From Sphagnum compactum (taxonomy: Eukaryota): a stretch of DNA of 64,000 nucleotides. A program made the translations under genes and the position numbers. The stretch spans positions 3,410,001 through 3,474,000 of the forward strand of contig OZ234493.1 of assembly GCA_965153455.1 (NCBI GenBank). Direction: 5' to 3'. The notes beneath the pieces are model-generated. The model did not search any database. It saw only the letters and a program-made list of their open reading frames with translations, and was not told where the DNA came from. Of the stretch, positions 7,930 through 62,048 are shown piece by piece. Within the stretch, counting starts at the first letter, position 1. The number at the start of each line of letters is the position of its first letter.

Positions 7930-8307
7930 ATGACCTGGGCGGGGCTATCTAAGGTGGTGGATCCATGCAATAACCGCAAGAGTGTATCTGGAGGACAGGG
8001 GCATGAAGTACACCAGAGTTTCTGCGGCATGATGGCCCTCAACAATTGTCAGTATGTCTATCAGGCTGACAACGAAGGAGATGGTGGATCGTCAAACTAC
8101 AAACCTCCAAAGAGAACCCAGTTCGTAAAATCTTTTGGAGATGGCAAAGGATCGCCATGGAACCCCGCACCTCCCCCTAGGGGCGCTATGTGTACAGGGA
8201 ACACAAAGAATATTTTGGGGTGGGGAGTTGATGGAGGGAGCTATGGAGATGGAGGTGGGAGTAAAATTAACCTGGGAAGTGTGATCTCTGGTGACAATCA
8301 TCAGTAG
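7930..8307 (+). CDS. GDG-motif multi-core peptide precursor-like protein, copy 1 (125 aa; a 1-nt deletion alters the third motif and C-terminus)
   Basis: acaATG start at the position conserved in all copies. MTWAGLSKVVDPC...EGDGGSSNYKPP...FGDGKGSPWNPAPPP...YGDGGGSKINLGSVISGDNHQ. Sequence aaaattaacctggg versus aaaattaaacctggg in copies 2, 3 and 6. Confidence 0.6.
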   Translation: MTWAGLSKVVDPCNNRKSVSGGQGHEVHQSFCGMMALNNCQYVYQADNEGDGGSSNYKPPKRTQFVKSFGDGKGSPWNPAPPPRGAMCTGNTKNILGWGVDGGSYGDGGGSKINLGSVISGDNHQ

Positions 8308-8747
8308 CAGCACCTCTGAACACATGAATTGCAGTACATGCTTAAGCTAGATGGTTTTCTTGTTGCTGGAAAGAAAGCTCAGGACATTGAATCCAGTACA
8401 ACCTTTCTGGGTCTTTGTGCTTGAAGAATAGATAGCTTTAGGACATATTGAACACAAATTCTTTGCGGGTTTTCCAGATCCATCATTCTTTTTAGCCATA
8501 GGAAGCAACCAAGTATGAAATAGTCATCAATTTATTTCAATTTGTACATACATAGGTCATTTGATGTGCTTAATTCTTTCACCCACGGTCAGCTACCCCA
8601 ACCCCCTGTGCATGCCAGCAGACCATTGGGCCAGGTACTGAATAAGGGGGGAAGAAGGAAAAGAGAAACAGAGTAATTAGGAGCACCTGGAATTCCTATT
8701 CAGTTCACACATTTTGTGGAACTTAGCTTGTACATAGGAATCGCTTA

Positions 8748-8753
8748 AATAAA
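8748..8753 (+). terminator. Candidate polyadenylation signal AATAAA of the peptide gene
   Basis: AATAAAG occurs about 430-465 nt after the stop in copies 1, 2, 3, 4 (reversed) and the more diverged copy 6 (62512-62517). Confidence 0.35.
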
Positions 8754-11700
8754 GACCAAAGTGCTGTGCATGTACATATGACCAATATTGAGCTCCTTTA
8801 CATGCCAGGCTTTTCTAGAGATTTGAGGTTGCATACATGAGATCAATGCACCATGAGTCAAATTTTGGTTGTCTGCATTTCCAAGTGGGAAAACCAGCGG
8901 TAATGAGTCTTGACAAGAAGAAATAGCCATCCAGGTAGTCCAAGGTATGCATCAACTACTCTCATCCATGGCCAATACTGGAATCGTGGTTGGGGGTCAG
9001 GTCAAATTTAAGTAGTAATAAAAGTCCTCTATCTGTTGGAACAGCTTTGGCAATTTTGTGGTTGGGGAATACTACAAGTCAGGAATTCTGGACATTCAAA
9101 TGTCAAGACTACTCAGATGCCCCATGTGGAAACCATTGTATACTGTCCTTTGTGTACAAATTTCAATCAGAATGACATTTTAACTTGAAGAATGATCCGA
9201 GAAGTACACCAAACTAGGGCTACTAAGCCCCAGTTTCACAAAAACTGGGGATGAAATGAGAAGTCAGGATCTGGAAAGAGTGCACAAGGAAAAAAAAAAG
9301 TGTTCTTGGTTCTTAGGGTAGTTGCACCCTCAGTTTTGGATTTGCGTTATCTGTGCCTGGATTGTGCTGCTCGTATTCTTCATTAAATCAAGCCCTGTTA
9401 GAATACAATTGTACAAATCCTCTGAACTGATAGAGAATTTCATGAAACCAACTCAATTTCAGTCACTTCACAGCTACACTCAAATTGGGGATGAAGCAGG
9501 AATTAGAGGGTCAAACTAGGGCCCAAATGATGGGTGATTTTATGAATATCTGTATTGGCCTCCAAGTAATGATTGTTAGTAGTGCCAATCAGCCTTTTAT
9601 TTATTGGCAAAAATTTTCCAAAAAGCGAAATTAAAATTTAAAAATCTGAAAATGAAGTGATTTTGGAGGCTTTGAATAGCCAAAAGTGAGGGAAAAACAA
9701 AGTTAAAAAATCCAGATTTTTATATTTGCTTTTTAGTGTGTAACCAAAATTATAGGAGGATTAAAGATTTGTGTATCATTTGTTTTAATAGCCAAATTTA
9801 GCTAAATCTTTCTAAAGATGATAGCCACTTTTTGTACATCTTCCTAACAATGCTTGCCACTTTGGCTACAAACAAAAATTCCTAAATGAAACATTGGTGC
9901 TAAAATCACTTACAATGTGATGGGGCTATTACCAATTTGTCAAGTATTGCCTAGGTTTAGGATGCATCTTCAATCTTAAACCAAGTAGAACTGGGAAGAC
10001 AAAAGAAGTCCAATACTAGAAAGCAAATAATTTAAGGTCAGGTTTTTCTCTGTATTTCAATGTGGGATGTACCTTGTTGGAGCTTTTGGCCTTGTGCATG
10101 ATGAGCAACAACATAAAAAAAACCAATGGGTTAAAAGTGACATGTGCAGTTACAATTGTAAAGTTTTGTTGTTTAACCATCTATTTTTAGTATGCCAAAA
10201 ATGGTATTCATGACTTGATCATTTTATTATTAATGCTCAAACCTAGCCATGTAGTTGTATGTGACATGTTAAATGTTTTGTAATATTTATTATGACTACA
10301 TGACTATAATCATTTCTTTGGTTGATAATATTTACAACATGGGATGTAATTAATGGCAACTAATCCTTCCAAGTGGATGAATTGTGGGTGATTTCTCATT
10401 CACCTAACCCATCACATTTCACATTAGTCACAAATATAATTAAATATTGGTCACAATGATGACATGGACGTAAAGTTGTTAAATGTTTATGAAAGTTCAT
10501 TATGGATATACTAGGAATATGTTACATAAGGATATATATCTAGGAATGCAGCGATAAGTTGGGGGCCAATGATAGGTAGGTAGGCGTATCTATTTAATTA
10601 TCTAGGCTACTTACTTATTTACCTATGCTTACTTGCCCACTTATTTGCCTAACTTATGAACCTACTGACTTACTTAACATACCTATTTATTTAGTGTAGG
10701 CTACTTACCTAAGTTAGCTAGGCTCAAAGAAAAATAAAGTAGACAAAAAAAGTAAACATTTCCACTTCAACCTTGCATTGTTCATATAATTACCATAAAA
10801 TAACATCAAATGAGGTGAAAGTGTGCGTTAAGTAGCATTAGTTTGCTCTATTAATTTTATGAGAATTTAATTTTTTTTTTAAAAATTAAATAGATAAAAA
10901 TAAATTTGAAACCAATTGAAAAATACATGTTCAAACCTACTTTTTGGTTAGAAAATTTAGTGAAATTAATATGTAATAAGTTAGGAAATGAAAATCAACA
11001 TATGTTTTAGCAAGTCATCACAAAAAATATATATTTCTTTTTTGTAAGAACTTACTTGACACCTACTTGAAACCAAAAGCCCACATTGAAAAGTAAACGT
11101 CAAAAGCTATTTGTATTTTTAAAAACCTACTTAAAACCTACTTTTATAGTTTAAAATATGAAAATCAATACACATTAGTGAAAACATATATTAGATTTAA
11201 TCATTGAAATGAAAACATACAATGTTTCATAATTCTATAATGAATATTTAATTAAATAGGATTTTATTTACTTAAGCCTACCTATCTATCTACTTAGGCC
11301 TATGTACCTAATTCTAGGGGGTGCAATCATCGTAACATGTGTCACAAGAGTTGTAACAGATGTTTAATTTTTCACATTTTTTAGTCAAAATTTAATTTAT
11401 TGTTGAATATGCTGAAAACCAATTCACAAATATGTTGCCAATATATTATAATATCACCTTGGAAAATATTTTCATGAAGCCATATATGATAAAAGGTCCC
11501 AAAACATTCCTTAAACATTGTAATCAATGCTTTTGAGTGCTTATTTTGTTATTTTTAGATAAAATGGGAAACAATTATCAAAGCAACATTTCGTCATATT
11601 AATTAATCAAGATGTTAATTGACCCTTTGGTCAAAAAGACGCCATTCAACATGAATGTGTATAAAATGAGTTTGTCCCAAGTGACACTTTGGTCAAGTTG

Positions 11701-11777
11701 GATAAGGAAACAAAATTATCACATGTGATTTTTTTGACTAATTTTTCCAATTAAAAAAATTGTGATTTTTTGTAATA

Positions 11778-16080: not shown

Positions 16081-16444
16081 ATGACCTGGCCCGCGCTATC
16101 TAAGGTGGTGGATCCATACAAACCGCAAGAGTGTATCTGGAGGACAGGGGCAGGAATTACACACGAGCTTGTGCGGCAGGATGGCCCTCGAGAATCGCCA
16201 GTATGTCTATCTGGCTGACAACGAAGGAGACGGTGGATCGTCAAACTACAAACCTCCAAAGAGAACCCAGTTCCTCAAATCTTTTGGAGATGGCAAAGGA
16301 TCGCCATGGAATCCCCCACCTCCCCCTAGGGGCGCTATGTGTACAGGCAGCGCAACGAATATTTTGGGGTGGAGAGTTGATGGTGGTGGCTACGGAGATG
16401 GAGGTGGGAGTAAAATTAAACCTGGGAAGTGTGATATCTGGTGA
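16081..16444 (+). pseudogene. GDG-motif peptide precursor, copy 2, frameshifted
   Basis: Conserved ATG at 16081. A 2-nt deletion (tacaaaccgc vs tgcaataaccgc) gives a premature TGA at 16216-16218. The downstream frame still encodes all three motifs through ...KIKPGKCDIW*, with an in-frame ATG at 16181. TATATAA at 15552-15558. Confidence 0.65.
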
Positions 16445-22393: not shown

Positions 22394-23176
22394 TTATGAC
22401 CTAAGTTGACATTAAGTTGACCTAGGTTGACCCTATACTAATGTGATGTAGGGGTGCGTCTACATCCAGATGTGTCCATCACATTGTAATAGACACATGA
22501 ATGTGGTGACAACCCTATTCATAATTTTAAAAATATGGAATTCGAAATTTTAAAAAATTAATTCAAGTATTTTAAAAATTTTAAAATTGTCAAAAGTCTT
22601 TTATCACATGCAAATGGGGCGTAATGTGCATGACATACAAAACAAAGTTGTAGTTTATGATTTTTAAAAAAAATCCAAAATAGTTAGCATTTTTTGGTAT
22701 GATTCAAAAATATGATAAATTTTCAAGTTGAAATGCAAAATCTGCACACTTTGGAAGATTCATATTTATTCAACAATGATTAACACAAAACATGTGATCT
22801 ATTGGGCCAACTATAAGTATTTTAAATAACAAGTTGCAAAAGATTTCATCCAAAAACGCTTTCATATGAAACAATGAAAAATGACTAAAAAGGATTCAGA
22901 ATCCCTTTGGAAAGTAAACCCATTTGTACCTACACCCAAAGGGAGGTATATAACATACACCTTTTTACGAAAGACATCATGGAAATCCATAAAGTTTTGA
23001 CATTCCAAAATAGTTTGTTGCCTTTAATGTAGATTGGGTTAGCAAGTTTTTTGAATTCCAGTAACCCTTTCAAGTTATGAACAAATAATGCATACAAATT
23101 TTGCAACAAATATTCAGGTCAATGCATTAGATCTACAAACATAGCCAAATTAGTTTTGTGCAAAAGGCCAAAACAA

Positions 23177-24613
23177 TCCTTGGGTGGTACCACTAGGAAC
23201 ATCACATTTTGATTTTCTTAGACCCATTGGGCTTTGAAAATCATAAGAAACACTTAAATACATATTTCATAAACTTTTCTTATTGAGTACATTTATTAGG
23301 TTCCATAGATTTAAAATTTTCAATAATATCAAAAATATTGTGTATTTTGATTTTCCTAACCATTGCATTTAGAAAATGTTTCAAGAATGTAACATTGATT
23401 CCTTGAACTTTTTGGTCAAGAATATAAATTTGAAACATGATTTGGGTATTTTTTGGGGAATTTTTTTCTTAAATAATTTGGAAGTCATTTTATTTTTAGG
23501 TTTCTATTAGGGAATGAATTGAGTAAATATAATTTAGTTATGATTTTTCAAAGTTAGGGTGAAAGCACATTAAGCCCCCCTAAAATTGTAGTCATATGTA
23601 TAATTTTTCTGTCATTAGTTTTTTTTATAATGTACAAACATCACATCTTGGACTATTTTTACTTGTTTAAAGTTTATTTGATTAGTTTTAGAATTCATTT
23701 AATCAATTATTTTGAAAAATTCAACAAACATTGAAAAATTTGAACGTATGTAATATATTAATGACAGAATAATATTCCTCACACAGTTTGAAAATTTGAA
23801 TATATACTTCAAAATTAGGGTTGTGGATGGAGTTTTCAGGTGCAATTTTTTATGGGTTATGATATTGATATACATCAATTAAATCTAAGACAATTTAAAA
23901 AATTTAAAGTTTTTGGATGAAATTTCACTCAAAACTTTGTTGTTTTGCATTTATTTAACAATGAATACATAATAATATCATTTTTTAAAGAAAAAACCAC
24001 CACCATATCAAATAGGAAGAGATTTTATAAATGGGCATTGCATTATGTTTTTCAATTTTCTATTGTTTGGTGATGTTTCATGAATCATAAGCAAGAGGCG
24101 TTATGGTTGTTGAAAAACTATAACTTATATACTTTGTGTACATTGATTTTATCCAATCCTCCTCATCTAACCATTGGATCAAAATTAATTTTGACTCAAA
24201 ATGAACCTTGAATTTGAAAATGTTATTGTGCAAATTCTAAATTTTTTTACTTATGTGTAGGATAACTAAAGGATGTCATCAAGATTTTAGTTTATTGCGT
24301 ACTATAATACTTCCTATACATCATTTTTTTTGATCAAAAGTGGTTCACCCTTAGTGTGCTTTCATTCGTTAAGGCTATCAATTTTTAAAGGGGCCATTTT
24401 AGTTAGGAATAAAATTGTTTAATAATTTCTAATATTTTTAATTCCAAAATAAATTTCAAGCCATATATTAGTGCATGCAATTGATAAACATGAGAAAAAA
24501 GAAAAATTTATAGTTGTGAAAACATTTAAAGTAAACATCTCAAAAAAATGATTTGGTTGTTTTTGGTTTTTAAACCATTCCTTGAGGTGGTTCCTAGTGG
24601 TACCACCCAAAGA
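23177..24613. mobile_element. TIR element (TCCTTGGGTGGTACCACTAGGAAC family) with a nested MITE
   Basis: 24-bp TIRs at both ends. Related copy without the nested insert at 55251-55866. Confidence 0.75.
23557..24367. mobile_element. Nested MITE, GGGTGAAAGCACA-type TIR, 4-bp TSD
   Basis: GGGTGAAAGCACATTAAG...CTTAGTGTGCTTTCATTC flanked by GTTA on both sides. Empty site visible at about 55620-55632. Confidence 0.7.
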
Positions 24614-24619
24614 TGCTTT

Positions 24620-25480: not shown

Positions 25481-27199
25481 TTCCTATTCTTATCATTTTA
25501 CCTAGATAGGTCCTCACAATCTTCATTTGACATTGCCACTAATGATCTTTTAGCAAAAACAAAAACACAATGTCGTGATGAAGAAGATGTATTAACTTTA
25601 GTCCATCTTGAAGGAATGAAGGTAGAGGATAACTTGGTTTGAACTAAAATTCTTGAAAATTTAAAAGGGGGCCAATGTGGTTATACATAATTCCAATGAA
25701 ATAAGGATCAACCATCAAGTTTTGAAAGCATAGGCCCTTAGATGATAAAAGATTGAAATATTTCTATGATGAAAACTTAAGAGTTTAATTCTAGAATTCT
25801 TAGGAAGTAGGTATAAAAGATGAGACCTTCAAAAAATAAAAATATTTAGGTTCTTAGAGTCCAAAATTCAATTATGATAGGGTGTGTAGTCAGATTTGGG
25901 CAGATTACTAGGGTTAGGGCAATTTTGTTAACTCCCTAAAACTTGTTTAATAATCGGATTGAATGGTGGGTTGTTTTTTGTTCTTTTGATGTTTTACATG
26001 TTAAAGTAGACAACTTGAAAGAGTTAGAAAAATCATGAGCATGTGAGGGAGTAAGAAAATCAACTATTGTTGTCTAGGAGACAAAATGGAAGGAGTTTTG
26101 CAACTATGGAGGAGGTATGAAAATAATAGAAGAAGGAGGAAGCAAATAAGGTGAAACTATGTAGGGGAACAACATAGTTTTTTTGGGGGTGTGTGTGTGT
26201 GTATTATATAGACATCCAAGCATAGAAGGGGGAAATAAAATGTTTAGCAGAGGCAAAAAGTGGGACTTCAAAGAAGTAGATAACTTGAGATTGGCAAAAA
26301 ACTTGGAGAATGGATCATGAGAAAACTTTTGAAAACAAATAAAGATAAAGTGAGGGAGGTTGTGGGAATGTTGTGCAAATTAGGAAATAGTTGTTGAGTT
26401 GTTGCCCATGGTTTGTTGGGGATCAAGAGGTTTTTTTGTTTTAATTAAATCTTGATGAATGCTAGGAAGGGTAGAAGATAAGTGGATAATACGATTTCAG
26501 ATAGAAACCAAGAAAACAAGGTTTGAGTGTAGATAGGTATGGGTATAATGGTTAGTAAATGTGAATTGTTCTAGAATTAAAATTTCAATGCTTGTTCAAA
26601 TCCACATACTACCCCTTGGTAAAGTTGCCAAAGGTATAGAGAACGAACCCAATAGCAAGTTGAACAAATAATTATAATTAGGATTAGAGAGTTAATATTT
26701 TGTTTAACATGCACCGTAGGTTGGTGGGCAAGGTGTTTTGGTGGGTCAAGTTTCTAGCTTAGGTTAGGTAGTTTAGTGAGGGTTCTTAGGTGCCTTGCAT
26801 AGGTTTGTAATTAATTATTAGTGTATTAATTATTGATGATTTAATATATTAGTGAATTTATTATTAATGATTTAACTATTAGTGAATTTGATTAATATTA
26901 ACCAATTCAATTAGTTATTTTTGAATTCACCTGTTCGTAATAACTCATCCCTGTTAATTAAAGGGTTGCCCACTTTCAACATTTTAAATTTATTCAATTT
27001 CATTCAAAATTTAATAAAAAATAAAGTGAACTTGGATGCATATTGGTGTAGTGTATGGCATGGTGCCATGGGGTGCAAGGAGGATTAAGTAATGGCATCA
27101 TTTTAAGGGCTTTAATTTTTAAATGGACATGTCACATGGCCAATAATGATGTCAACTTTTGGTTAATTTCACCCCGAAAAAATGGTTGCCTTAAGACAT

Positions 27200-28160
27200 C
27201 ACACATTCATTTGAATATTCTTTCGAGGAATGTGAAAACTCATCAAACAACAAATGGTTCATTTCAAGCTTCCATTTTGGAGCATTTGCACCATCGTGCC
27301 ATCACTAACATGTTTTTTGACGAAATTTATGAAGCCCATCATGCCCAAATTTTATCATGTTTGGGCCCTAAGGTGGGTGCTTGGTTTATAATATGACTAA
27401 TCTTTTCAACCTTTTAATTATCTTCCCCAATTTTTTCCACATCACTTCGGATGTGGCTTGGATAACACATCCTTCAATTGCAAGCCTCCCCTAGTGTGTA
27501 TGCACACATCCAATTGACCCTATGGGTATTCACCTTTTGTGTTGTGCCTATGGCAATGAATGCATGGGGACCCATGATGCAATTCACAACACTTTTCTTG
27601 CAATTGTGCAAGATGTTGGCTTAGACGTGGGACAAGAATGATTACATGCACTTTTTTTAGCAATTCTCGATTCTTCTTGTTGATGAATCAACAATATGCT
27701 TATGACAGATGGAATTCGCACCTTAGCTGACATTGTCATAGCCAACACAATGTTTGTGGATCTACCTCCTCAATCTTGCACGATTCAAAGATTTGCTATT
27801 TCAATGCAACTCAAGCCAAAGAAACGAGTTATCGTGACGAACACCCCACTAATCAATTTTTCCTTGTAGCAATTGAGGTATTTAGATGTTTACACAAACA
27901 GGCTTACGTGTTTTTACACAATTGAATCAATATTATTTGCAACCTACAAGAGCGAAAAGGCATTTCCCTTTTCTGTTTAAATTTTTTTCTTCATCAAAAA
28001 GATTTATTTACATTGCAAAAGATACAAACATCTTCCATCTTAAATCAAGCAATAACAGTAGTCTAAATACTTCCCAACTTCCACCACTTCAAGCCACACC
28101 ATCACCGCCATGGCTGATCTATTACAAGCAATTGGTTGTTGAGATGGAGATTTTTTGACA
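27200..28160 (+). mobile_element. Decayed CRE-like LINE 3' end (duplicate of 4560-5425, less 3'-truncated)
   Basis: Collinear homology with 4560-5425; same CxC..H..C..HD and endonuclease-like remnants. Confidence 0.65.
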
Positions 28161-29874
28161 TCTAGTTTGTGCTAACTTGACATCCTTTAAATTCTCCGTT
28201 GTTTTTGATAGCTTTGGACATTTTTTGAATCTGCACTGTGTTTTATAAATAAAGTTTTGCAGGGTTTTAATAATAATAATAGTAAGAATGTGAGAGGACC
28301 CCAATAAGGACATCTTTTTATTAGACTGCCGTGATCAGAGCAGCCTCCTGGAAAGAGACCCTGAATCTCATCTTAACCAATGCTTGACTTGTTGTTAATG
28401 CTCAAGAGTTATATTCTCAAAACATATTTAAACAAACTTGCAGATGAATACAATTTCTTTCCTGTTTTGTGCACACATGTTCGTTGGTAAAAGAGCATCA
28501 CAAATTTTCACATTAGAAGCTGAACAAGGTCCAGGAAGGCACTTATTAGAGCTTCATATGATACCTGATTAAATTATCACCAGCTCAAAGCACAGGATTT
28601 GAAGTTTCCGGTGTCCTGGAAAATGACATATAAGCAATCTCACAATTGAGAAAATATTGATTAATTTTTTGGGACCTATATCTGCAGACTTGGGGTCGAC
28701 TCCAGGTTTACAGTCTTTTTTACCAACGCACCGTTTTCAAAATGCAGCTGAATGAAGATTTGGCACTTGAAGAAAAATAAGCCCACACTAAGTCTGATAC
28801 TAATACTACCTTGAGGTAGGCACAAGTTGATGTCTGGGCTCATTTTAAAGAATATTTTTGGTCTGTTTTGGTGGTGCTTTTGATATGCAGTTGGTATCAT
28901 TATATACTGAGCCGGGGTCAGTCAAGAGTCTCAATCAAAGGACTGGATGCATGGTCCCCAAATCTAAGTGTACCTAAGAAATTTTGTAGTGCATTTGAAT
29001 TTTTGAGTGCACCTTATATTCATGAATATCACCCCTCTATAGAAGAGGAAAGATCTTACAATAGCTAATACTCAAGAATGTGAGGGAAATTATACCTACT
29101 TACAAGTTTAAGATCCCTCTTGCTCTTAAATAGTAGGTGTAAGAACCCTCCCCTCTTATGCCTTATGATTTACCTATGTTTAAGTGTTAAGTAAGGCCTG
29201 TGAATGGAGGCGGTACCAGAATAAGGTGCCCACCACTGGCATTACCAAAATAAGGCATCCACCTTAGGCAATGGGTGCCTTATTTTGATAAATCACCATC
29301 CAAGTGCCTTACCATGGGTAAATGATATGTCAACATATGTTCTTCATATCTAATGGCACTCATATTATGCAAAGAAAGAACAGCCAAACCTAAACAAAAT
29401 GTTCGAGCCACCTAGATATGTAAGGTGACCTTCAGTATCAAGCGGGAATATTATGTATTTTAAGCACCCTCCAAATCCTCTGGGAAATCTCTGAGAGGTG
29501 ATTATGTTTATGATAATGTCATCCCTTATTTTGGGGAAAGCCCATCGATAGGGGGAAATCCCACAATGTGGGGCCCGAGTCCAGAGCCCAGACTGGGCAA
29601 CTGCCTAAGTCCTCATCTTAGGCTCCATATTTTAGGAATTCTCCCACTCTAGGGCCTTTTCCTAAAGGTGCGCCAACTGATAGGTATAACTATTAACAGT
29701 AGTCAGATGGATTATAACTTCACTCTTCTCATTAGCGACGAGGATGACCTCATTAGCTGTGAGGGTGGACACCGAAGCCCAGAGACGATCTGTTTCGACA
29801 AATCTGTTCGGAAGGACAATGCTCCACCGAAATTTGTTGACGATTTCGTATGAGTTTCCCGTAAATTTGTTCTG

Positions 29875-30372
29875 GGGACGTCCACAGAAGAAGTTGCGAA
29901 AGTGATTAGCTTCTACTCCACAGTTGTTTAGATTCTCTAATTTCTGTTTATTTCGGTTGTTATTTCGCCACACATAATGGGAAATGGGCATGCTGCTGGC
30001 GCTGCGACCCACCAGATTCTTATGTCTGAGAATGGAAAAATTTCCGAGTGATATCCGAGCAGCTAGTCGATTGCACTGGCACCGCGTGATGAGAAATATC
30101 TTTGCTCAAAGCGGGAAGTTGGCGATGGGGAGCTACGAAAATTTTCAGTTCGTTACATAATATGTCGGAGTTCGGGTTTTCCTAAACCGCCCATGTGGAG
30201 GTAAATGCTTGCAGTGGTACCCTCCCCGCCCCAAAACCAAAAATTCCGACAACGGTAAATGCGTGTTCCTTGGGATGCAAGGATAGCAGCACGCCGAGTA
30301 GTTCTTTGTTGCAGAACGACCCCCTGGAGACTTTTCTTTGGTTTTGAGTGGGAGCTTACAGAGTATATAAAA
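29875..30372 (+). promoter_or_regulatory. Promoter of peptide gene copy 3
   Basis: GGGGACGTC, GGAAAAATTTCC, ACCGCGT, CTTG-ggatg-CAAG 30269-30281 and TATATAAAA 30364-30372, 533 nt before the ATG. Confidence 0.6.
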
Positions 30373-39794: not shown

Positions 39795-40160
39795 TCACCA
39801 GAGATCACACTTCCCAGGTGTAATTTTACTCCCACCTCCATCTCCATCGCCCTCACCATCAACTCCCCACCCCAAAATATTCTTTGTGTTCCCTGTACAC
39901 ATAGCGCCCCTAGGGGGAGGTGGGGGTTTCCATGACGATCCTTTGCCATCTCCAAAAGATTGGAGGAACTGGGTTCTCTTTGGAGGTTTGTAGTTTGAGG
40001 ATCCACCGTCTCCTTCGTTGTCAGCCAGATAGACATACTGGCAATTGTTGGGGGTCATCATGCTGCAGAAGCTCTGGTGCAATTCCTGCCCCTGTCCTCC
40101 AGATACACTCTTGAGGTAATTGCATGGATCCACCACCTTAGTTAGCCCTGGCCAGGTCAT
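39795..40160 (-). CDS. GDG-motif multi-core peptide precursor-like protein, copy 4 (121 aa; in-frame ATG 7 codons upstream at 40181)
   Basis: MTWPGLTKVVDPCNYLKSV...NE-GDGGSSNYKP-PKRTQFLQSF-GDGKGSSWKP-PPPPR...EGD-GDGGGSKITP-GKCDLW. Same length and stop as copies 3 and 6. Confidence 0.75.
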   Translation of the reverse strand: MTWPGLTKVVDPCNYLKSVSGGQGQELHQSFCSMMTPNNCQYVYLADNEGDGGSSNYKPPKRTQFLQSFGDGKGSSWKPPPPPRGAMCTGNTKNILGWGVDGEGDGDGGGSKITPGKCDLW

Positions 40161-40669
40161 TGTGCTGTTGTCTGCGGTCATCCAACAAACCAAATTCTGC
40201 AAGCCTGAGGAAATCTGGCTTGGACACTCTCTGAGTAGTCTGGTAGCTCCAAATGAAAGCTGCAGATCGGGATCAAATCCACACACCAAGAAGCCAACAA
40301 AACCAAGATCTAGAACGAAGAGAGAATATGCTGGAAGTATTGTGGTGGTCAAGATTGAATCCAGGGGGAAATGAAAATTAGTAAAAATAAGGATTCTGCA
40401 GGGACAAATTCTAGTACTTAGATATGATCTAGGAGCTGGAAGAAGCTTTCAATGAGGAAACTGCTAATTGACCGTTGAAATTGAAAAAGCCTCTAATTGC
40501 AGGACTTCGGTTCACCCCAAGCCAGTTGAATGATGTCTTACTTGAACTGATTCGGAAAGAATATGGAAAAATCGAACTTTGTGATTCAACTGATGAATAT
40601 CCCGCTCGCTGCTGCACTCTTTGATGGCGAAGAGATTGCTGAGTGAAGACTTAGCGGAGTAAACGGTTT

Positions 40670-41156
40670 CATATATGTACTCTCTAAGCTCCCTCTCACG
40701 CCAAACCAAAGAAAAATCTCCAGGGCGTCGTTCTCCAACAATGAACTACTCGGCGTGTTGCTATCCTTGCATCTCAAGAAACACGCATTTACCGGTTTTG
40801 GAATTCTCGGTTTTGGCGGAGGGGGATCACTGCAAGCATTTACGTGGGCTGTTTACTAGCCGTCAAACTCCGACATATTATGTAAAGAACTGGAAATTTT
40901 CGTAGCTCCCCATCGCCAACTTCCCCCTTTGAGCAAAGATGTTTCTCATCACGCGGCGCCAGTGCAATCGACTAGCTGCTTGGATATCACTTGGAAATTT
41001 TTCAATTCTCAGACATAAGATTTTGGTGGGTCACAGCGCCAGCAGTATGCCCATTGCCCATTATGTGTCGCGAAATTACAACAGAAATTAGCGAATCTAA
41101 ACAACCATGGAATCAACGCTAAATCACTTTACCAACTTGTTCTGTGGACGTCCCCA
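40670..41156 (-). promoter_or_regulatory. Promoter of copy 4
   Basis: TATA-like ATATATG 40670-40676, CTTG-catct-CAAG 40766-40778, ACGCGG, GGAAATTTTTC and GACGTCCCC at positions equivalent to the other copies. Confidence 0.5.
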
Positions 41157-44100
41157 GACCAAATTTACCGGAAGCTCATACGAAATCGTCATCGTCAACA
41201 AATTTATGTGGAGCATTGACTTTCCGAAGAGAATTGTCGAAACAGATCCTCTCGGGGCTTCCGTGTCCACCCTCACAACTAATGAGGTCATCCATGTCGC
41301 TAATGTGAAGAGTTAAGTTGTAATCCATCTGACTAATGTGAACAGTTATACCTATCTGTCGGCGCACGTGTAGGATAAAGCCGTAGAGTGGGAGAATACC
41401 CAAAATATGGGGCCTAAGGTGAGTACCAGGCAGAGTCTGGCTCCACATTTTGGGAACGGCCCCATCCATCGTTTGTCGCCATCATAAAGAATGACATTAT
41501 CGTAAACATAATGACCTCTCAGAGATTTCCCAGTGTATTTGGAGGATGCTTAGAATGTATAATATTCCCTCTTGACACTGGAGGTCATCTTACATATCTG
41601 GGTGCCTCGAACATGTTGTTAAGGTCGTGCTGTTCAATCTTTGCACAATATGAGTAGGATCTTTGCCATTAGATAGGGACAAAGAAGGTTGACATGTCAT
41701 GACACAGTAAGTCCCTTGGATGGGGCCTTATCAGAATCAGGCACCTATTGCATAAGGTGCATGCCTTATTTTGGTAATGTCATTGGTGGGCGCCTTATTC
41801 TGTGAAGGCCCTCCATTCATAGGAGTTACCTACCACTTAAACATAGGTAGAGGACAAGACATAAGAGGGGAGGGGTTCTTACACCTACTACTTAAGAGCA
41901 GGAGGGATCTTAAACCTATAAGTAGGCATAATTTCCATCACATTCTTGAGAAGTGATTACTGTAAGATACTTCCTCTTTTATAGAGGAGTGATATTCCTG
42001 ATATAGTGTGCCTTCAAAAATTCAAATGCACTAAAAAATTTCTTAGGTACACTTAAGATTTGGGGACCACGCAGTCCGGTCCTTTGACTGACCCTGGTTC
42101 GGTATGTAACGACACCAACTGCATATCTAAAAAGTACCACCAAAACAGACCAAAGATAACCTCTTAAGTGGGCACAGACATCAACTTGTCGGCTACCTCA
42201 GGGTAGTTTCAGACTTAGTGTTGGCTTATTTTTCTTCAAGCGCCAAATCTGCATTGACCTGCATTTAGTCAAATTTGGGTGACGTGAGGTGAAATCAGCC
42301 AAGAGCAAGAACAGCAATGTCTGCCCTCTGGCGGCAACCACACACAAAGGAGGACTCTTGATTCCACTTTCTACCGAAACCAGGCTCCAGCTGCTCTGAC
42401 TCTTCTTTGTTGTACTTACGTAAGCATGTAAAACAATCGGGTGGGCCATCAGGCACCGCCTTTCCTACTCATTCTTTCTCAACGAACATGAGGGAAGAGG
42501 CTAGCCTCCCCCCACGCCCGCCCCCCTCCCCCGACAACGAGCACGCACATGTTTGAACGTACTTCAGTTCATTCTTGAAGTTTGATTCTTGAGCAAGAAG
42601 TTACAAGATTGCACTTTCCTACCGACAGCATCCCGGTCTTTTATTCCTATTACTTACATAAGTCTATATACGAACATTCCATCCGGCACCGCTTCAGCCA
42701 GCCACCTGCCGCGCCGCGCCGCTTGCTAGGAATCATCCCATTCCTAGGTACCAACTACCCATTTTTTTGAATTTTACTGAGAATCATACTTACCCAACAC
42801 TGGTATGAAATGTTCTGCAAAAGTTCCATGTGCAGGATGCATACTTATGACTTGGATGTATTTAGGGTTTCATATTTCTTCATGATTTGAAGTTCTAACA
42901 TAATTGTGAATTAAAAATGGTTCAGGGATTTTTTCTTTTTATAGTTTCAGTTTCACCTACTTGTGCTCGTGACCAATATGTAATGTGGAACTCAACTAAT
43001 GCACTTGGAACTTCCTTGCTTTTGTTTCGATTGAATTGTGGTGTTTCACATAGATGCCTCCAAAATGGAGCTACTATGAGAGCACTTGGCACAAATGGTG
43101 GCATTTTGATTGATCTATACTTGCTTTTGAACATGTTGGACTTGTGTCAAGGGTTGAGACTTGAGACCAATGGTTGGTGGATATTGCTCTGTTTAAAGAT
43201 CAAATTAGGCCTGTTCCAAAAAAAAATGAAGATCAAAAAAATTTCAAGGTTCTCAAAATCTCAAAGAATCTCTACCACCAAACATTTCTCAAATGGTTCT
43301 TTTCTAATATCAAATAATTGTTGGATCAGTGAAACTTGTTCTTTGATTAGGGTTACGAATTTTTAATTAATTACATATAAAATCATAATTATTGAATTAT
43401 TAATTTAATTGCCTGAAAAACCTAACCTTTGCATTCAACTCTAAGTCTAACCTAAACCCTAACTTGAGAACCGTGCAAGTAGGGCTGGATATTTAAAGCC
43501 ACCAGTTCTTTCAAGCTAGGGCTTCACAATTTCTTGTTGGTTTCAGCAAGTTTTTTTGTTTTCAATTTTGTGATTTTGCTCAAATGGTGATTGTCCATAA
43601 GTACATTTAGTCAAATTTGGCAATACTCAAAATATGATAGTAGATAATATTCAAATTGTAGGCAATTGTGGCAACTTGTGACGATTTTTTAAACTTTTAG
43701 TTTTTTTGTCTTGTTTTTAAATAGGGAATTTGTGACAGAATGTTTTTTTTTTCTTTTTTTCTTTCTGCAAAATTTTGACAACTCCCCCACCAAAAAAATT
43801 GCTGGCTTCAGCCTCATGTTCAGTGATCTTGCTTTGATGAATTTTGAAAAAGTATTAGGAAACTAAAGATTAGGGTAAACATTCTTATTTTATTTTTCTC
43901 ATTTCTTGTTCATTTTTGAGTGATTCAAAGAATTATGTGTTAAGCAGAGCTTTGATCTTTGAACTCCAGAGTCAAAGGAGCAGCAAAGAACAAACACAAA
44001 GCACGTTCACATAATGTTTTGTCCAAGAAAATGACCCCTTACTTCTAGATCTCATATCTTTCTTATTTCTTGTTTCATGTTGACCAATCTAAACAACTAT

Positions 44101-44639: not shown

Positions 44640-45017
44640 TCAGAGAACAAATTTGCAGGGCTTAATTTTACTGCCCCCTCCATCTCCATCCCCAGCTGCA
44701 GCATCATCAAATCCCCATCCCAGCTGTTTCTTGGCAAGGTAGCCTGCTCGATTTGTACTCTTAGGGGGAGGTGGAGGGTTCCATGGTGACCCTTTGCCAT
44801 CTCCAAAAGATTTTTGGAGCTGGGTTTTCTTTGGAGGGTTGTAGTTTGATGGTCCACCGTCTCCTTCGCCACCAGGCAGATTAACATACAGACAATTGCT
44901 GAAGGAGATTAAGCTGCAGCCTGCCTCATGTTCTTCATCCCCAGCTAGTCCGTCAGCAGCTACACCCTTCCAGCTAAATTTCCGTGCATCAACGTTAGAC
45001 ACCGCCCGCCAGTTCAT
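44640..45017 (-). CDS. GDG-motif multi-core peptide precursor-like protein, copy 5 (125 aa, most divergent paralogue)
   Basis: MNWRAVSNVDARKFSWKGVAADGLAGDEEHEAGCSLISFSNCLYVNLPGGE-GDGGPSNYNP-PKKTQLQKSF-GDGKGSPWNP-PPPPKSTNRAGYLAKKQLGWGFDDAAAGD-GDGGGSKIKP-CKFVL. acaATG start; frame preserved despite length differences. Confidence 0.8.
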   Translation of the reverse strand: MNWRAVSNVDARKFSWKGVAADGLAGDEEHEAGCSLISFSNCLYVNLPGGEGDGGPSNYNPPKKTQLQKSFGDGKGSPWNPPPPPKSTNRAGYLAKKQLGWGFDDAAAGDGDGGGSKIKPCKFVL

Positions 45018-45338
45018 TGTTTCTGTCTCCAGCAATCAACCAACAAATAAAGAAAAAATCTAACTTTGAGATTTTAAATTGATTGCTAGTATCGAAGCCT
45101 GCAAGGTCCGTCGCCACCACCCAGAATTCTTCGTCAATTGCAAATTTAGTCTCTAATTGCAGGACGTTGCTTCACCACAAGCCAGTACTTGAATGATGCC
45201 TTGAGCTGCTGATTCGGGAAAATATGGAAAAATCTAGCTCTATGATTTAACTGATGATCCCACTACTCGATGCTGCACTCTTTGAAGGACAAGAAACTCT
45301 ATATGCTGTGTGAAGAATTAGAGGAGGCAACGGTTGTC

Positions 45339-45674
45339 TTATATACTATAAGCTCCAGTGCTGCCAACCCGAAGAAAAATCTGCTGGGGTCTTTGTGCAG
45401 CATTGTCGAACTACTAAGCGTGTTGCTAATCTTGCACAGCAAGAAACACGCATTTACCAATGTCGGTAAAATCTCTTGTGGGTGGGTGGGGATCACTGCA
45501 AGCAGTGCCTCCAAATGGAAAAACCACGAAACTCCTACTTACAACGAACTTGTAAGTAGAGAATTTCGTAGTTCATCGCCAACTCCTCCCCAGCTATGAG
45601 TCGCAGTTAGATGTTTCTCACAAACTGCAATTGACTAGAGAGTGAGCTTCGATATAACCACTGGGAAATTTTTC
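45339..45674 (-). promoter_or_regulatory. Proximal promoter of copy 5
   Basis: TATATAA (reverse) 45339-45345, CTTG-cacag-CAAG 45431-45443, AAACACGCATT, W-box TTGACT 45631-45636, GGAAATTTTTC 45664-45674. Confidence 0.55.
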
Positions 45675-47789
45675 AATTAGCAGACTGAAGATGGTGGGTC
45701 ATATTGAGAGCATCAGCTGATGATTCAACGGTTTGACAAAACTGCAACAGATTACCAAGCCCTAAAAACCTCCACTGAAATTCATAGTGTAGTTTGGGGG
45801 ACCTCCCAGTTCTAACCTGGTTGTGGGTTGTTAGTAGGTAGGTAGTAACAAAAAAGGAACTGAGCTAACTAACCACCATGGTTAGCTAGGGAACTGGAAC
45901 CCAACAGAAAATTGTTATATGAATACCCCCTGGGTCTGGTTCATAGGGATCTAGGAGTAGGGAGTCTAAGTTTAGTTAGGGTTTAGGGTCTTAGGTGAAG
46001 GTGAATTTAGGATCTATTTTTGTTTCGATATTTTAGCTTTGTAATGAACCTTGCTGATATATTTTTTTGGCCTATGACAATTTGAAAAAACATTTAAAGA
46101 TCTTAATCTTAAAATTTTTAAGTGAGGTTTGAAATTTGGCTTAATATAACTGACTAATCAAAATAAGTTAAGATTTGGTTGTGAAAGAATAAATTGGGCA
46201 TGAGGAAAAATAAAAATAAAGAACTAAACAACAAATGATTTATAAAATTGTGAGAACCACATTAGTTTTCTATTTTATATTTTTTTGAAAATTGGAATAG
46301 ATGGTTATGAAAAAAAAAATTATAATTGCCCAACATTGGTAATATCCCTAGGATGGGGGAGATTTGTTTTTTTAGATAATTTGCAACACTAATTTGAATG
46401 CACATGGATTTTTATGGAAGGGGAGGTAATGTTGTTAGTGCCTTTGCCTTGGATCAATATCTAATTTTTAAAATAATTGTTGGGTTTGGGTTTAAGATTT
46501 AATTTATTTATTAAAAAAATGGTTAGTTTGAAATTTTTTAATTCCAAGGATAGGTCAGTATGAAACAAGGTTGGGGGTTGGATCCATTTGAAGGGGTATA
46601 CATTCCCAACTAATATCCTATTAGGTTCTTTAAGACATGTTGATTCTTTGAAAGAAACCCTACCAGGGATAATGATGATTTTTTACTCGGATCTTAAAAT
46701 GCAAGTTGAAAAATGTCTTGTATTAAACATTGTAAAATGGGGAAACCATGAGCAAAACATGCAAAGTTTCCAAACTTCATTGTAACTAAATTACAATTAC
46801 AATAGGTTTTTTTTGTTTTCTTTAATTTCTAAACTATAAACCTAATTGAAAAGAGTTAATGTTAATATGAATCAAAATGATAGTTTTTTTTTTAATTGGT
46901 TATATTATAGGCCACTCTTCCATGCTCCATCCATGTTCCATGTTTCATATATAGTTTTAGATGGGTTCTCAAGGACATATTCACATATTTTGAACTCCTT
47001 TTAAAGATGAATACATAAATTACAAATGACAAACCTCAAAGATAAAAAAACTTTAAAAAACAAAAAAAATTCAAAAATCTAAACCTATTTCAAAGATAGA
47101 TAGACCTAAAAAGCAAACACATTTCAAAAATCCAAACAAACTTCAAAGACAAACAAACTTTGAAAAACAAACAAATTACAAAAATCCAAATAGACCTCAA
47201 AAATGAAAACAATCTTTCATAATAAAAAGGATAGACATTCAAAAACAAATACAAGACAAAAGGCCTCACAATATAAGGGACACACATTCAAATAACAAAA
47301 AAGACCTCAAAGTAAAAAAGACAAACATTTGAAAAACAAAAAGACCTACAAAAAAATATTATTTTCAAATATAAACCATCAATATTTCAAATTTCCCATC
47401 AATCCCTAACTCATTTCAAAGACAAACTAATACATAGACAAACATTCCAAAAAATTTAATGAAATCCTCACAATTTGGAAACATAAGAGAATTTTTTATG
47501 CAAGAACCTTAACAAAATAATCATTTCATCATCTTCATGGACACTCAGTATGTGTAAGGACTTATACATTTGGCTAATTGCTATGTAGCAAAAAGCTATA
47601 AACTTTAGTAACCTACATATTCCAAAAACAATTCACAAATTGTCCCACCATCCCATAAAGTGTACTATTGTGAACATCTAAAAATTAATCACATTCAACT
47701 TCATCCACAAATTTAGCATCCAACTCCTTTGCCAAGTCAAATTCAGCTTCACATATAGATGCCAAATATGTAGGTTTGAAATAACCAAC

Positions 47790-51671: not shown

Positions 51672-51680
51672 TAAGTGTAT

Positions 51681-54825: not shown

Positions 54826-55250
54826 TTATGGTTAATATATGTTCCAACTACATAACTTGTCTATAACCAAATGTGGCAATTTTCCTATGGATGATTACCA
54901 TTTAACAACATCATAAAAGTAAATAAATAAATTTATACTTAATCATATTGGGGAAAATAAAAACTTGCAATTCTTCAAAAAAATAGACATATTTTAATAA
55001 ATTTATAAAAAATTTAATAAATGCATTTTGAATTTAGATTGAATTAACAAAGATTTAGGTCAATTTAAACAAAACAATATTTGTTGATTTATTCATGAAA
55101 TGGTAATCTAAGTTTTTTTATTTTGTAAATTAATTTTGTGAATTATAATAAATTTTTAATACATTATTGAATAAACTTCAAAATCATCTTTTCATTTGTA
55201 ACATTTGAATACATTTTGCAAATGAAAATGTATGTTAAAAGGGCTCCTTA

Positions 55251-55866
55251 TCCTTAGGTGGTACCACAAAGAACATCAGACCTTGATTTTCGTAGACACA
55301 TCGAACTTTGAAAAATCATAGGAAACATTTAAATGAACATTTTCATAAATTTGTTTTTTAAAATTCCTTTTCTTAGGTTCCATAGATTTTGAAATCTCAA
55401 TACTTTCAAGAATATTGTGTATTTTGATGTTCCTAATCATTGCATTTAGAAAAAGTTTCATGAACATAACACTTGTTTTTTTCCTTGAACATTTTTGTTA
55501 GGAACACAAATTTGGAACATGATTTATGAATTTTTTTCTTAATGTAATTTGGAAATCATTTTATTTTACATTTTTATTTGGAAATTAGTTGATTAAATAT
55601 GATTTAGTTATGAAGTTCCAAATTTGAGGCTGTCAATTTTTTAAAGGGCCATTTTAATTAAGAATATAAAATTTTAAAATTTTCCAATTTTTAAAATTCC
55701 CAAAAAAACTTCAAACCATCTATTAAAACATGCAATTGATAAACATGAAAAAATAATAATTTATAATTTTGAAAACATTTAACGAAAAGGGCCTAAAAAA
55801 ATGATTTGGTTGTTTCTAATTCCTTAACCATTCTTTGAGGTGGTTCTTAGTGGTACCACCCAAGGA
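55251..55866. mobile_element. TIR element, same family as 23177-24613
   Basis: TCCTTAGGTGGTACCAC...GTGGTACCACCCAAGGA. Interior collinear with the two halves of 23177-24613. Confidence 0.75.
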
Positions 55867-57385
55867 TGGGTTGCCCTAAAATTTGAATTTCTTAAACAAT
55901 TTCATGCCAAACATGAATTTCTACAACAATCAAGACACCACAAGTTCCATGGCAATTATTTTTCTTGCTTGCTAAAAACTTTAATTAAGGTTTACACTTG
56001 TTTATTTGTTCATTAACCCAAAGCTTGGCCACATGGGGTTTGTCATTGAAATTACCTACATTTTTCTTGAGTTCGAAACTTTTTGGACCCAAGTTCATTG
56101 AAGCCCTTACAATAGTTGGGTATTATTTTTCCACTTATTCCCATCACAACAAACAACTAGAAACCAAACTATTGGCAACAACAAGAATAGCCCCTTGTCC
56201 AAGTCTACTCGAGATTGCAAGCTTTTTTTTCATTGATTACTCATACTTCAATTCCCTTAAGATCTCTCTATCCATCTTTATTTATTGTTCACTCACTCCT
56301 TCACTCTTCTTTCTCTCTCTTTGTCTTTCATTTGTCTTTGACCTAAAAGGATTATTTAAAAGATCCAAGTCTATGATTAAATTTCCTTCAAAGGTGCACT
56401 TTCACCTATTTGTGATTGGGACTACTACATAACATGACTAATACACTTGTACCTTCCTTTATTTTTGTTGTGTTTTGATTTTGTTGCGCCACATTTTTTA
56501 CTCCAAAGTGGAACCTTTGTGGAGAACTTGATAGAAGTGGTGTCATATGTCCACATTTTAATTGATTTCTATTTGTTTATGGACACATTGGACTTATGTC
56601 AAGTGTTGACATTAGATTGCAAGAGACTCCATGTGTTCTGTTTGTGGAAAATGAACAATAACGATGTTGAATTTCCTATTGATTTTGACCTCATGTTTAA
56701 TGATCGTTGGTTTGGTGAAATTTTGTTTAAAGTGTGGATGGTAATAAGTAGGGATGAGGGAAACTGACTAGAGGAATAAAGGTGAATTTTGGACACATTC
56801 CCCTTATTTGAAGTGTTTTACCATGAGCATAAGTAGAGATATGTGTTTTGTAGATTTTTTTAAAAGCCAAGTTAAACATGTCATTTCCAAGTAAGGTGCA
56901 TTTACATAATGTGTTATAAAATTCATATCATAAAATTCCAATGATTACAATTCATTGGATTTGGTTTAAATAACACAACTTTAGGTTTCGTAAGTTGTAG
57001 TCACTACCTAGACATTTTCAAATTGGAATCTATATAGCAAATTCTCAAGTAAAGATTGTTACATGGCTCAGCGTTGTGCCCTAAGTTAAGCCAAAAATAG
57101 GGCGATGATTTATGTGTTGCCCTACTAGGTCAAACTCTCTTTAAGCTTTTAGGGCTATTATCTATTGTTAAGGGCAAAAACTACCAAGCTAAGAGCCGAA
57201 AGCTTAAGACCATGGCTTTTTGAATGAATTATCATAAATAATGATTATTTATATATATTTATAAAGTAAATATCATGTTTTCGTGCATGTTATGTGTGTA
57301 AAATGGTTACACAACGTTAAGATCTTTAAAGGTTACCAAACAAAATGAAAACTTTTTTCAGAACAGTTAATTAATGGTACATTCA

Positions 57386-60400: not shown

Positions 60401-60778
60401 CCTCATAATTATGGCAAGCTACGAAATGGAAAATCTGATTACTGATATGAAAATCTTATTAGTCTGCTCTAAAACCCAAAAAATTAAAATAGTTATTCCA
60501 AAGTTACAATACAAATTAGTTTTTTGAAAGATTTTTTTTTGGCCACCTCAATGTCGAACCTGACCCTAGTCTACGGGTATCTCTTTAGCTGGGAGGATGG
60601 AAGGGAAGAAGAAGATCAGTTTTGAAAAATCTGTTATGATCAAATTCAATGCTCCAAGTTTGGTTGACAAGAGAGGGCAGGCAGGAGTTTAAATAAACGC
60701 TTTAGAACGTGTTGTCCAAATATACACTACGAAATTTCTCGTAGATCTTTACGTATGAGTTTCCTGTTGTTGTGGTCT

Positions 60779-61163
60779 GGGGACGTCGACAGACAACTTG
60801 CTAAAGTTACACGAGCTTTCTGTGTGGTTGTTCGCCAGGATCTTATGTCTGATAATTGAAAAATTTCCTTGTCATGGTGTCGAAGCAGATAGTCAATTGC
60901 TGCAGCGCGTGAGGAACATTCTTGCTCATCATCTAAGGTAGCAGCTGGCGATGGTGAGCTACAATTATTTGCAATTCGTTGCACATTGTAGGAGTTTCGC
61001 GGTTTTTCCATTTGGAGGTTTTAATGCTTGCAGCGATCCTCACCTGCAAAAGTTTTACCGAGAACGGAAAATGCGTGTTTTTTCAGCAACACGCCCAGTA
61101 GAATGCTGCACAAACACCCCTGCAGATCTTGCTTGGATTGGCAGTGGTGCTCATAGTATATAA
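60779..61163 (+). promoter_or_regulatory. Promoter of copy 6
   Basis: GACGTC 60782-60787, GAAAAATTTCC 60858-60868, W-box AGTCAA 60891-60896, GCGCGT 60905-60910, AATGCGTGTTT at about 61070, TATATAA 61157-61163. The CTTG-N5-CAAG site is deleted. Confidence 0.55.
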
Positions 61164-61682
61164 GAAGTTGTTACCTCTGCTAAATTCTTCACACATTTCT
61201 TGTGCAGCAAAGAGTGCAGCATCGAGTGGGATATTCATCAGTTGAATCACGAAGTTAGATTTTTCCATATTCTTTCCGAATCAGCTCAATTAAAACATCA
61301 TTCAACTGGCTTGTGGTAAACCAAAGTCCTGCAATTAGAGGCTTTTTCAATTTCAACGATCAATTAGGAGTTTCCTTGTTGACAGCTTTGCTTCCAGCTT
61401 CTTCCAGCTCCTAGATCGTATCTAAGTACTAGAATTTGTCCCTGCAGAATTCCTATTTTTCCTAATTTTCATTTCCCCCTGGATTCAATCTTCACCAATA
61501 CAATACTTCCAGCATATTCCCTCCCCATTCTAGATCTTGGTTTTCTTGGCTTTTTGGTGTGTGGATTCGATCCAGATCTGCAGCTTTCATTTGGAGCTAC
61601 CAGATTACTCAGAGAGTGTCAAAGCCAGATTTCCTAAGGCTTGCAGAATTTGGTTTATTGGATGACCACAGACAACAACAAA

Positions 61683-62048
61683 ATGACCTGGCCAGCTCTA
61701 TCTAAGGTGGTGGATCCATGCAATTACCTCAAGAGTGTATCTGGAGGACAGGGGCAGGAATTACACCAGAGCTTCTGCAGCATGATGGCCCTCAACAATC
61801 CCCGGTCTGTCAATCTGGCTGACAACGAAGGAGACGGTGGATCATCAAACTACAAACCTCCAAAGAGAACCCAGTTCCTCCAATCTTTTGGAGATGGCAA
61901 AGGATTGTCATGGAAGCCCCCACCTCGCCCTAAGGGCGCTATGTGTACAGGGAACACAAAGAATATTTTGGGGTGGGGAGTTGATGCTGGGGGCGATGGA
62001 GATGGTGGTGGGAGTAAAATTAAACCTGGGAAGTGTGATCTCTGGTGA
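61683..62048 (+). CDS. GDG-motif multi-core peptide precursor-like protein, copy 6 (121 aa; in-frame ATG 7 codons upstream at 61662)
   Basis: MTWPALSKVVDPCNYLKSV...NE-GDGGSSNYKP-PKRTQFLQSF-GDGKGLSWKP-PPRPK...AGGD-GDGGGSKIKP-GKCDLW. Confidence 0.75.
   Translation: MTWPALSKVVDPCNYLKSVSGGQGQELHQSFCSMMALNNPRSVNLADNEGDGGSSNYKPPKRTQFLQSFGDGKGLSWKPPPRPKGAMCTGNTKNILGWGVDAGGDGDGGGSKIKPGKCDLW

Follow-up and report, generated by a model that had tools for sequence, protein, structure and literature searches.

A tandem gene family of small repeat-bearing proteins restricted to Sphagnum

Prosystemin, Propep1 and Prozip1 are described in PMC13157962 as proteins that have no secretion signal, are largely unstructured, contain no conserved domains and carry their function in short segments. 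Dehydrins, including the moss protein PpDHNA with its recurring D-segments, are leaderless, Gly-rich, hydrophilic and disordered proteins in which short conserved segments recur in differing numbers between stretches of low conservation (PMC8100072), and their definition (PMC8100072; PMC4215689) requires at least one Lys-rich K-segment. Here we analyze a stretch of 64,000 nucleotides from Sphagnum compactum (GCA_965153455.1, contig OZ234493.1, positions 3,410,001 to 3,474,000 of the forward strand), hereafter the window, which carries six copies of a gene for a small protein. These copies belong to a genuine, transcribed, protein-coding tandem family restricted to Sphagnum. A large part of the carbon in peatlands is stored by Sphagnum, and lineage-specific genes are thought to underlie much that is unusual in its biology.

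The window proteins resemble prosystemin, PROPEP and PROZIP in being small, leaderless and, by prediction, disordered, with selection on short blocks only. Unlike those precursors, with which they have no sequence relationship, they are found in Sphagnum and not in angiosperms, and they carry three repeated units instead of one C-terminal peptide. With dehydrins and LEA proteins they share architecture and composition, but they have no K-, Y- or S-segment, and their repeat is Gly/Pro-rich and not predicted to be helical. In sequence the family is new. In kind, it belongs with small disordered repeat proteins that are tandemly arrayed and taxonomically restricted.

The copies (c1 to c6, Table 1) form a tandem, partly inverted array. 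As the original prediction held, they are six paralogous open reading frames (ORFs), of which five (c1, c3, c4, c5 and c6) translate without a stop at precisely the positions given beforehand and c2 is frameshifted; four copies are intact, and in c1 the C-terminal tail is shifted. When the five main-type copies (c5 is a diverged subtype) were aligned as nucleotides, c1 proved to have a 1-bp deletion at ORF nucleotide 340, so that its final 11 codons are read in a different frame and the stop is displaced, and c2 a 2-bp deletion at ORF nucleotides 42-43, which shifts the frame. Downstream of that deletion, c2 retains an open frame that begins at an internal Met and includes all three repeats (87 amino acids, aa).

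The product is predicted to be a leaderless, hydrophilic, Gly/Pro-rich, disordered protein of 121-128 aa, in which a fast-evolving N-terminal half is followed by three repeat copies. Its grand average of hydropathy is -0.80, with 19% Gly and 8% Pro, and AlphaFold2, run with the family alignment, gave a mean predicted local distance difference test score (pLDDT) of 47 and one four-residue helix. A hydrophobic signal peptide and a recognizable domain had both been said to be lacking, and this is what we found: within residues 1-50, Kyte-Doolittle means over 12 residues peak at 0.62 in c3 and 1.41 in c5, with no hydrophobic N-terminal stretch, and none of the five proteins matches any Pfam family at E<=1. 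With respect to the secreted modified peptide families (CLE, CEP, IDA, PIP, RGF and PSY), hydropathy revealed no signal peptide and none of the five proteins matched a Pfam profile; we know of no consensus motif among the peptide families outside Pfam that fits. Cys positions are not conserved across subfamilies, so the product is not a Cys-rich peptide. The proteins have the leaderless, disordered, domain-free carrier of leaderless phytocytokine precursors, and homology to such precursors was found neither in Pfam nor in a profile search of 1.84 billion representatives. Likewise, Pfam gave no dehydrin match and the alignments contained no K-segment-like stretch.

The repeat unit and selection on it

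The three short conserved regions, described originally as cores, are diverged copies of one repeat of about 15 residues, G-D-G-G/K-G/S-S-x-Y/W/I-K/N-P-P/G. They align in register (NEGDGGSSNYKPPKR, SFGDGKGSPWNPPPP and GDGDGGGSKIKPGK, named m1 to m3 in Table 1). When motif profiles sliced from a 16-sequence alignment of three subfamilies were compared with hhalign, the units scored 19.7-24.5 against each other; 100 column shuffles of each comparison peaked at 13-15, and none of the 100 attained the observed score. The same motifs are invariant across the three subfamilies, including the S. fallax chromosome-12 gene BDL97_12G097000. Its 140-aa protein (P0016, of the P0016/P0024 subfamily, with S. 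jensenii) is colinear with those of the window; at an overall identity of 36-37%, all three motifs are retained. We infer that the repeat is the functional unit of these proteins.

A sister family of 154-292 aa, also found in Sphagnum only (P0015, P0061, P0063, P0064 and P0069; for example, S. magellanicum CY35_06G128100, with a chromosome-06 locus tag), consists of 4-6 near-identical tandem units of 22 residues, each a hydrophobic spacer followed by V-P-D-G-G-S-S-x-W-R-P-P, and the number of units differs between species. The window-family profile recovers the sister family at E 7e-5, and the segment of m1, spacer and m2 aligns with two consecutive sister units over 31 columns in a profile-profile comparison (probability 85.8%, E 5.4e-6). 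The two families thus have in common the repeat unit, their restriction to Sphagnum, the missing leader and a structure prediction of low confidence (mean pLDDT 39 for a sister-family protein, too low to interpret); unlike the window family, the sister family has more units, which are near-identical, spacers that are hydrophobic and rich in I, L, V and F, and a different N-terminus. The Pfam family DUF5744 was considered and rejected: the window proteins do not match it, and the sister family reaches 22-23 bits, below the 25-bit cut-off.

The copies sit inside duplicated segments of 2-5 kb, as self-comparison of the window shows. Because whole segments were duplicated, the ORF is conserved no better than its flanks among the five recent copies, and the informative comparisons are therefore those with c5 and with other species. 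The selection signal comes from these more distant sequences. Between c3 and c5, the stretch SFGDGKGSPWNPPPPP has three synonymous and no nonsynonymous differences and GDGDGGGSKIKP has five and none, exactly the counts reported beforehand. The ratio of nonsynonymous to synonymous divergence (dN/dS) for the same pair is 0.07 over the three motif blocks together (10 synonymous and 3 nonsynonymous differences), 0.76 over the rest of the ORF and 1.27 over the N-terminal 48 codons. The high N-terminal divergence that had been noted holds more generally, with dN/dS of 1.06-1.27 over these 48 codons in comparisons against c5; whole-ORF values are 0.53-0.83.

The sample was widened with 30 metagenome loci, of which 24 are full-length open ORFs, three are cut by contig ends and three are defective (a frameshift in L020 and, in L024 and L025, an in-frame stop at about codon 26). 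Removal of duplicates left 21 unique coding sequences (CDS), including the five window ORFs; among those kept are c1, the tail of which is shifted, and L002, in which it is altered, and both tails lie outside the analyzed regions. The motifs contain 24 synonymous and 19 nonsynonymous variants (ratio 0.25) and the non-motif parts 25 and 107 (ratio 1.14), a contrast with a Fisher p of 8.8e-6; these variant-codon counts are tree-free; they take no account of relatedness and give the minimum number of events. Mean pairwise differences in the motifs at codon positions 1, 2 and 3 are 0.023, 0.020 and 0.070, respectively, among 16 main-type sequences. Taken together, the codon comparisons indicate purifying selection confined to the three motif blocks. 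The reading frame itself has been kept over long times, despite an N-terminal half that looks neutral over short times: between c3 and c5, all three indels in the ORF (one of them N-terminal) are multiples of three, against two of eight in the flanks, and some N-terminal positions, M-x-W among them, do not vary even when the distant subfamily is included.

Two further observations concern the same sequences. Synonymous divergence between c5 and the main type is 0.23 across m1-m2 (c3 31041-31145) and 0.72 in the rest of the ORF, a difference that could result from gene conversion or from extra constraint at the nucleotide level. Within one sub-lineage, c2 (2-bp deletion) and the loci L024 and L025 (in-frame stop) have different N-terminal disruptions, and in all three an internal Met precedes a downstream frame that is still open and contains the motifs; either they are pseudogenes of recent origin or the N-terminal part can be dispensed with.

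Occurrence and transcription

A word-indexed search found seven relatives at E<=0.01 among 591 candidates, and both of those with a species name are from Sphagnum. These two are S. magellanicum CY35_07G103200 (96% identity) and S. fallax BDL97_07G095400 (83%). The profile search returned six proteins at E<=0.001: two of the family, two distant Sphagnum proteins (P0015 and P0016) and two that were taken as spurious after inspection, namely P0014 (314 aa, with repeated Y-D-P-P-T-K-T-E segments) and P0017 (with a different 29-aa repeat). The named cluster members come from S. magellanicum, S. fallax, S. jensenii, S. troendelagicum, S. balticum and S. tenellum, and all are annotated as hypothetical or are unnamed. 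There are several members per species on chromosome 7, where the named orthologues of S. magellanicum (CY35_07G103200, 103400, 103800 and 103900) and S. fallax (BDL97_07G094400, 094600, 095300 and 095400) cluster. Microsynteny is also kept: the order of c5 upstream of c4 recurs on one metagenome contig, where about 5 kb separate a c5-type gene from the main-type gene downstream of it. No longer, fused homologue was found among 2338 candidates, which is weak evidence. The ESM Atlas gave no usable match for c3 and, for a sister-family protein, leads below 0.9 only, which were not used. Searches of the literature for DUF5744, for the gene identifiers and for orphan genes or peptide precursors in Sphagnum (supplementary tables not covered) turned up nothing on the family. 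Every named relative is from Sphagnum; the family is undescribed and restricted to this genus.

Transcription was seen in the stranded polyA run X24, whose reads cover c4 from 39340 to 40675 and c5 from 44684 to 45351, with the first mate on the + strand only. That the library is stranded follows from loci near c4 and c5, where the reads run the other way. The first mate in most libraries of this kind reads the strand opposite to the RNA; the RNA would then be on the - strand, that of the c4 and c5 ORFs, and these two copies are most likely transcribed on their ORF strand. Depth is low (at most about 5), and 133 of the 167 mapped reads are only 90-95% alike, so that they derive from related species or paralogues. 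No canonical splice joint was seen in the transcript-like contigs of c4 and c5 (Table 1), and the genes are single-exon.

Three outcomes had been named in advance as telling against the family: a lack of transcription or translation of every copy, a dN/dS near 1 over the motifs and a match to a known domain or transposon ORF. What we found were polyA reads over c4 and c5 on the ORF strand, the motif ratio of 0.25 in 21 CDS and no Pfam match in any of the five proteins. Regarding transposons, Pfam gives no family of any kind, and the copies form one local array.

A TATA-like box shared by the copies had also been proposed. The strict pattern TATA[AT]A[AT][AG] occurs in four of the six copies and the relaxed pattern TATAT[ACG]A[AG][AG] in all six, although this may not be the box meant originally. 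The element lies at -515 to -533 from the ATG, and at -328 in c5, the leader of which is without about 250 nucleotides. The number of sense ATGs per leader is 0-1 in 17 of 20 leaders and 2-3 in the other three, compared with about seven in shuffled sequences and 7-12 on the antisense strand; being related to each other, the 20 leaders are not independent observations. The commonest leader ATG is in frame, 21 nucleotides upstream of the main one, and the depletion is present in both diverged subtypes. A scanning ribosome would thus meet the ATG of the ORF, or the in-frame one 21 nucleotides upstream, as its first AUG, which argues for translation. Even c5 and the main type share 75-95% identity in a leader block at about -500 to -340, which on folding was no more structured than shuffled sequences (z +1.23).

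About 120 nucleotides upstream of the TATA-like element (in c3, at about 30245-30260) there is a conserved promoter block with [A/T]CCGAC, which is found in four of the six window copies and in 10 of the 13 metagenome loci checked, in both subtypes. We take CCGAC to be the core of the DRE/C-repeat stress element, and the block may serve as a lead toward cold or dehydration regulation. Many RNA reads map partly to 45869-45916 and 41879-41918, with diverse loose ends on both sides; these two places behave like a dispersed repeat or a short exon common to many transcripts.

Possible roles of the repeats

The original prediction was of an undescribed bryophyte family of signaling or defense peptide precursors, or of precursors of ribosomally synthesized and post-translationally modified peptides (RiPPs). 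The family is indeed undescribed and lineage-restricted, with repeated motifs under selection; the term bryophyte is too wide, all named relatives being Sphagnum, and no domain of a tailoring enzyme, such as BURP or a prolyl-oligopeptidase-like cyclase, was found when the proteins and the 20 largest other ORFs of the window were compared with Pfam. A leaderless, disordered protein of variable sequence with short segments conserved is equally the hallmark of dehydrin-type and linear-motif proteins (PMC8100072). By analogy with such proteins, we give a probability of roughly 0.5 to the reading that the product acts as an intact, intracellular, disordered protein displaying its repeats as multivalent linear motifs or protective segments. 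The disordered carrier would display the repeats, as short linear motifs, in several copies; inside the cell, with the protein left intact, they would serve for multivalent docking or for protection, and a conserved Sphagnum partner would recognize them. Gene duplication and changes in repeat number (2-3 units here, 4-6 in the sister family) would tune dosage and valency. Segment-defined disordered proteins are far commoner than leaderless propeptides, which weighs in favor of an intact protein, and conserved residues that extend into the spacers would fit it as well. Several points count on the other side. The repeat matched no catalogued linear-motif class by the tools used. The conservation pattern would be equally expected of a propeptide, and the basic residues after repeats 1 and 2 (K-R/K-T-Q; R or K) would suit cleavage. 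The N-terminal 48 codons differ by 0.076, 0.075 and 0.078 at codon positions 1, 2 and 3 in the 16 main-type sequences, which looks neutral, as would suit a mere carrier; this diversity equals that of the proximal leader (0.073), and there is thus no short-term amino-acid constraint on the N-terminal half. Finally, runs X1 and X2 are RNA by guess only, and their contig depths of 1000-3900 are no measure of expression and were not used; if the sample were DNA from another species, its intergenic parts might just be lost at the 90% likeness filter.

Possible, if on the unlikely side, is a leaderless multi-core propeptide, in which a wound or stress protease (metacaspase or phytaspase) would free one to three GDG...KPP danger signals or phytocytokines from a cytosolic carrier. 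Selection confined to three repeated blocks of about 15 residues beside a neutral carrier half would suit this, as would a disordered protein with no signal peptide, tandem clustering of genes that turn over and form pseudogenes, the 4-6 near-identical units, in variable number, of the sister family, and the basic residues just mentioned; known leaderless precursors are likewise unstructured, domain-free carriers (PMC13157962). However, conservation extends into the spacer (S-F before repeat 2 and T-Q after repeat 1), the sister family lacks the dibasic site, and no known peptide family was matched in Pfam. Leaderless precursors are also a minority among plant peptide families, which weighs against a propeptide. 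The wider proposal, that Sphagnum has leaderless multi-core propeptides of its own in two related families (with three and 4-6 units), the GDGG-S-x-(Y/W)-(K/R)-P-P units of which are excised as danger or defense signals or cross-linked as RiPPs, strikes us as rather unlikely. A RiPP precursor taken alone, with a tailoring enzyme that would cross-link or cyclize the repeat cores through Tyr or Trp and Pro before their excision, is very improbable. The precursor is leaderless and its multi-copy cores each have an aromatic residue next to prolines, but repeat 3 of the main type has none, the cores are long and hydrophilic, the proteins contain no BURP or other domain, longer fused forms were not found among the 2338 candidates, and none of the 20 largest other ORFs in the window matches Pfam. 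It is also improbable, although less so, that this is a young orphan gene with little or no function at the protein level, transcribed, drifting and decaying, whose motifs were conserved through recent duplication or gene conversion. The whole-ORF dN/dS, the neutral non-motif parts, the defects in two of six window copies and three of 30 metagenome loci, and the frameshifted C-termini of the database proteins P0011 and P0013 would suit such a gene, and the low synonymous divergence across m1-m2 could reflect gene conversion. Against this stand the codon-position bias of the motifs, the in-frame indels, the AUG-free leaders kept in both diverged subtypes and the invariance of the motifs in the chromosome-12 paralogue.

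If the repeats of an intact protein are docking or protective segments, they represent a new repeat type among plant disordered proteins; if they are released signals, leaderless phytocytokines extend to bryophytes. The two-family propeptide proposal, if true, would provide the first lineage-specific leaderless peptide-signal system in a bryophyte. A defined, testable repeat motif and a sister family with 4-6 copies of it are now available.

Coordinates and surroundings of the copies

Table 1. Positions in the window of the gene copies and associated features
Feature	Position	Strand	Description
Copy 1 (c1)	7930-8307	+	125-aa ORF; repeats 1 and 2 intact, repeat 3 truncated
Copy 2 (c2)	16081-16444	+	Disrupted
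Copy 3 (c3)	30897-31262	+	Intact 121-aa ORF
c3 repeat blocks	m1 31041-31088; m2 31098-31145; m3 31206-31241	+	From alignment and selection analysis
Copy 4 (c4)	39795-40160	-	Intact 121-aa ORF; 128 aa from in-frame ATG 21 nucleotides upstream
Copy 5 (c5)	44640-45017	-	Intact 125-aa ORF; diverged subtype, 55% identity to c3
Copy 6 (c6)	61683-62048	+	Intact 121-aa ORF; 128 aa from in-frame ATG 21 nucleotides upstream
c3 TATA-like element and leader	30364-30896	+	Element at 30364-30372, then leader of about 500 nucleotides without ATG
TATA-like element starts, other copies	c1 7397; c2 15552; c4 40675; c5 45345; c6 61157	- (c4, c5)	From pattern search
c4 transcript-like contig span	39313-40988	-	Contigs from metatranscriptome X17 and runs X1 and X2
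c5 contig span	43940-45728	-	One colinear 1774-nucleotide contig
Segmental duplicate with c1	5433-10643		Matches 28320-33582 (carries c3) at 95-97% identity

In the self-comparison, shorter duplicates with c2, c4 and c6 reach 88-92% identity; compared with the c1 unit (Table 1), these units match at 88-90% and c5 in two blocks only, at 75-76%. An overlapping ORF of 84-88 aa in the +1 frame (for example, from +124 of c4) is open in c2, c4 and c5 and closed in c1, c3 and c6. The database proteins P0012 and P0013 mix the ORF and +1 frames, so that some public gene models derive from frameshifted copies. ORFs on the opposite strand upstream of c1, c2 and c5 were rejected as candidate genes; they are no more alike than nucleotide conservation explains, and the stranded reads are on the gene's own strand.

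Beyond the array, few genes can be recognized in the window: the longest stop-to-stop frame is at most 221 codons, none of the 20 largest other ORFs matches Pfam at E<=0.01, and an Rfam scan of the window gave no match. Other segments are repeated at 72-88% identity, some of them inverted: 2057-3828 with 21005-19243; 4498-5425 with 27149-28082 and 54367-53513; and 23176-24615 with 55250-55868. They are unrelated to the small-protein genes, their larger ORFs have no Pfam domain, and they are possibly degraded mobile elements.

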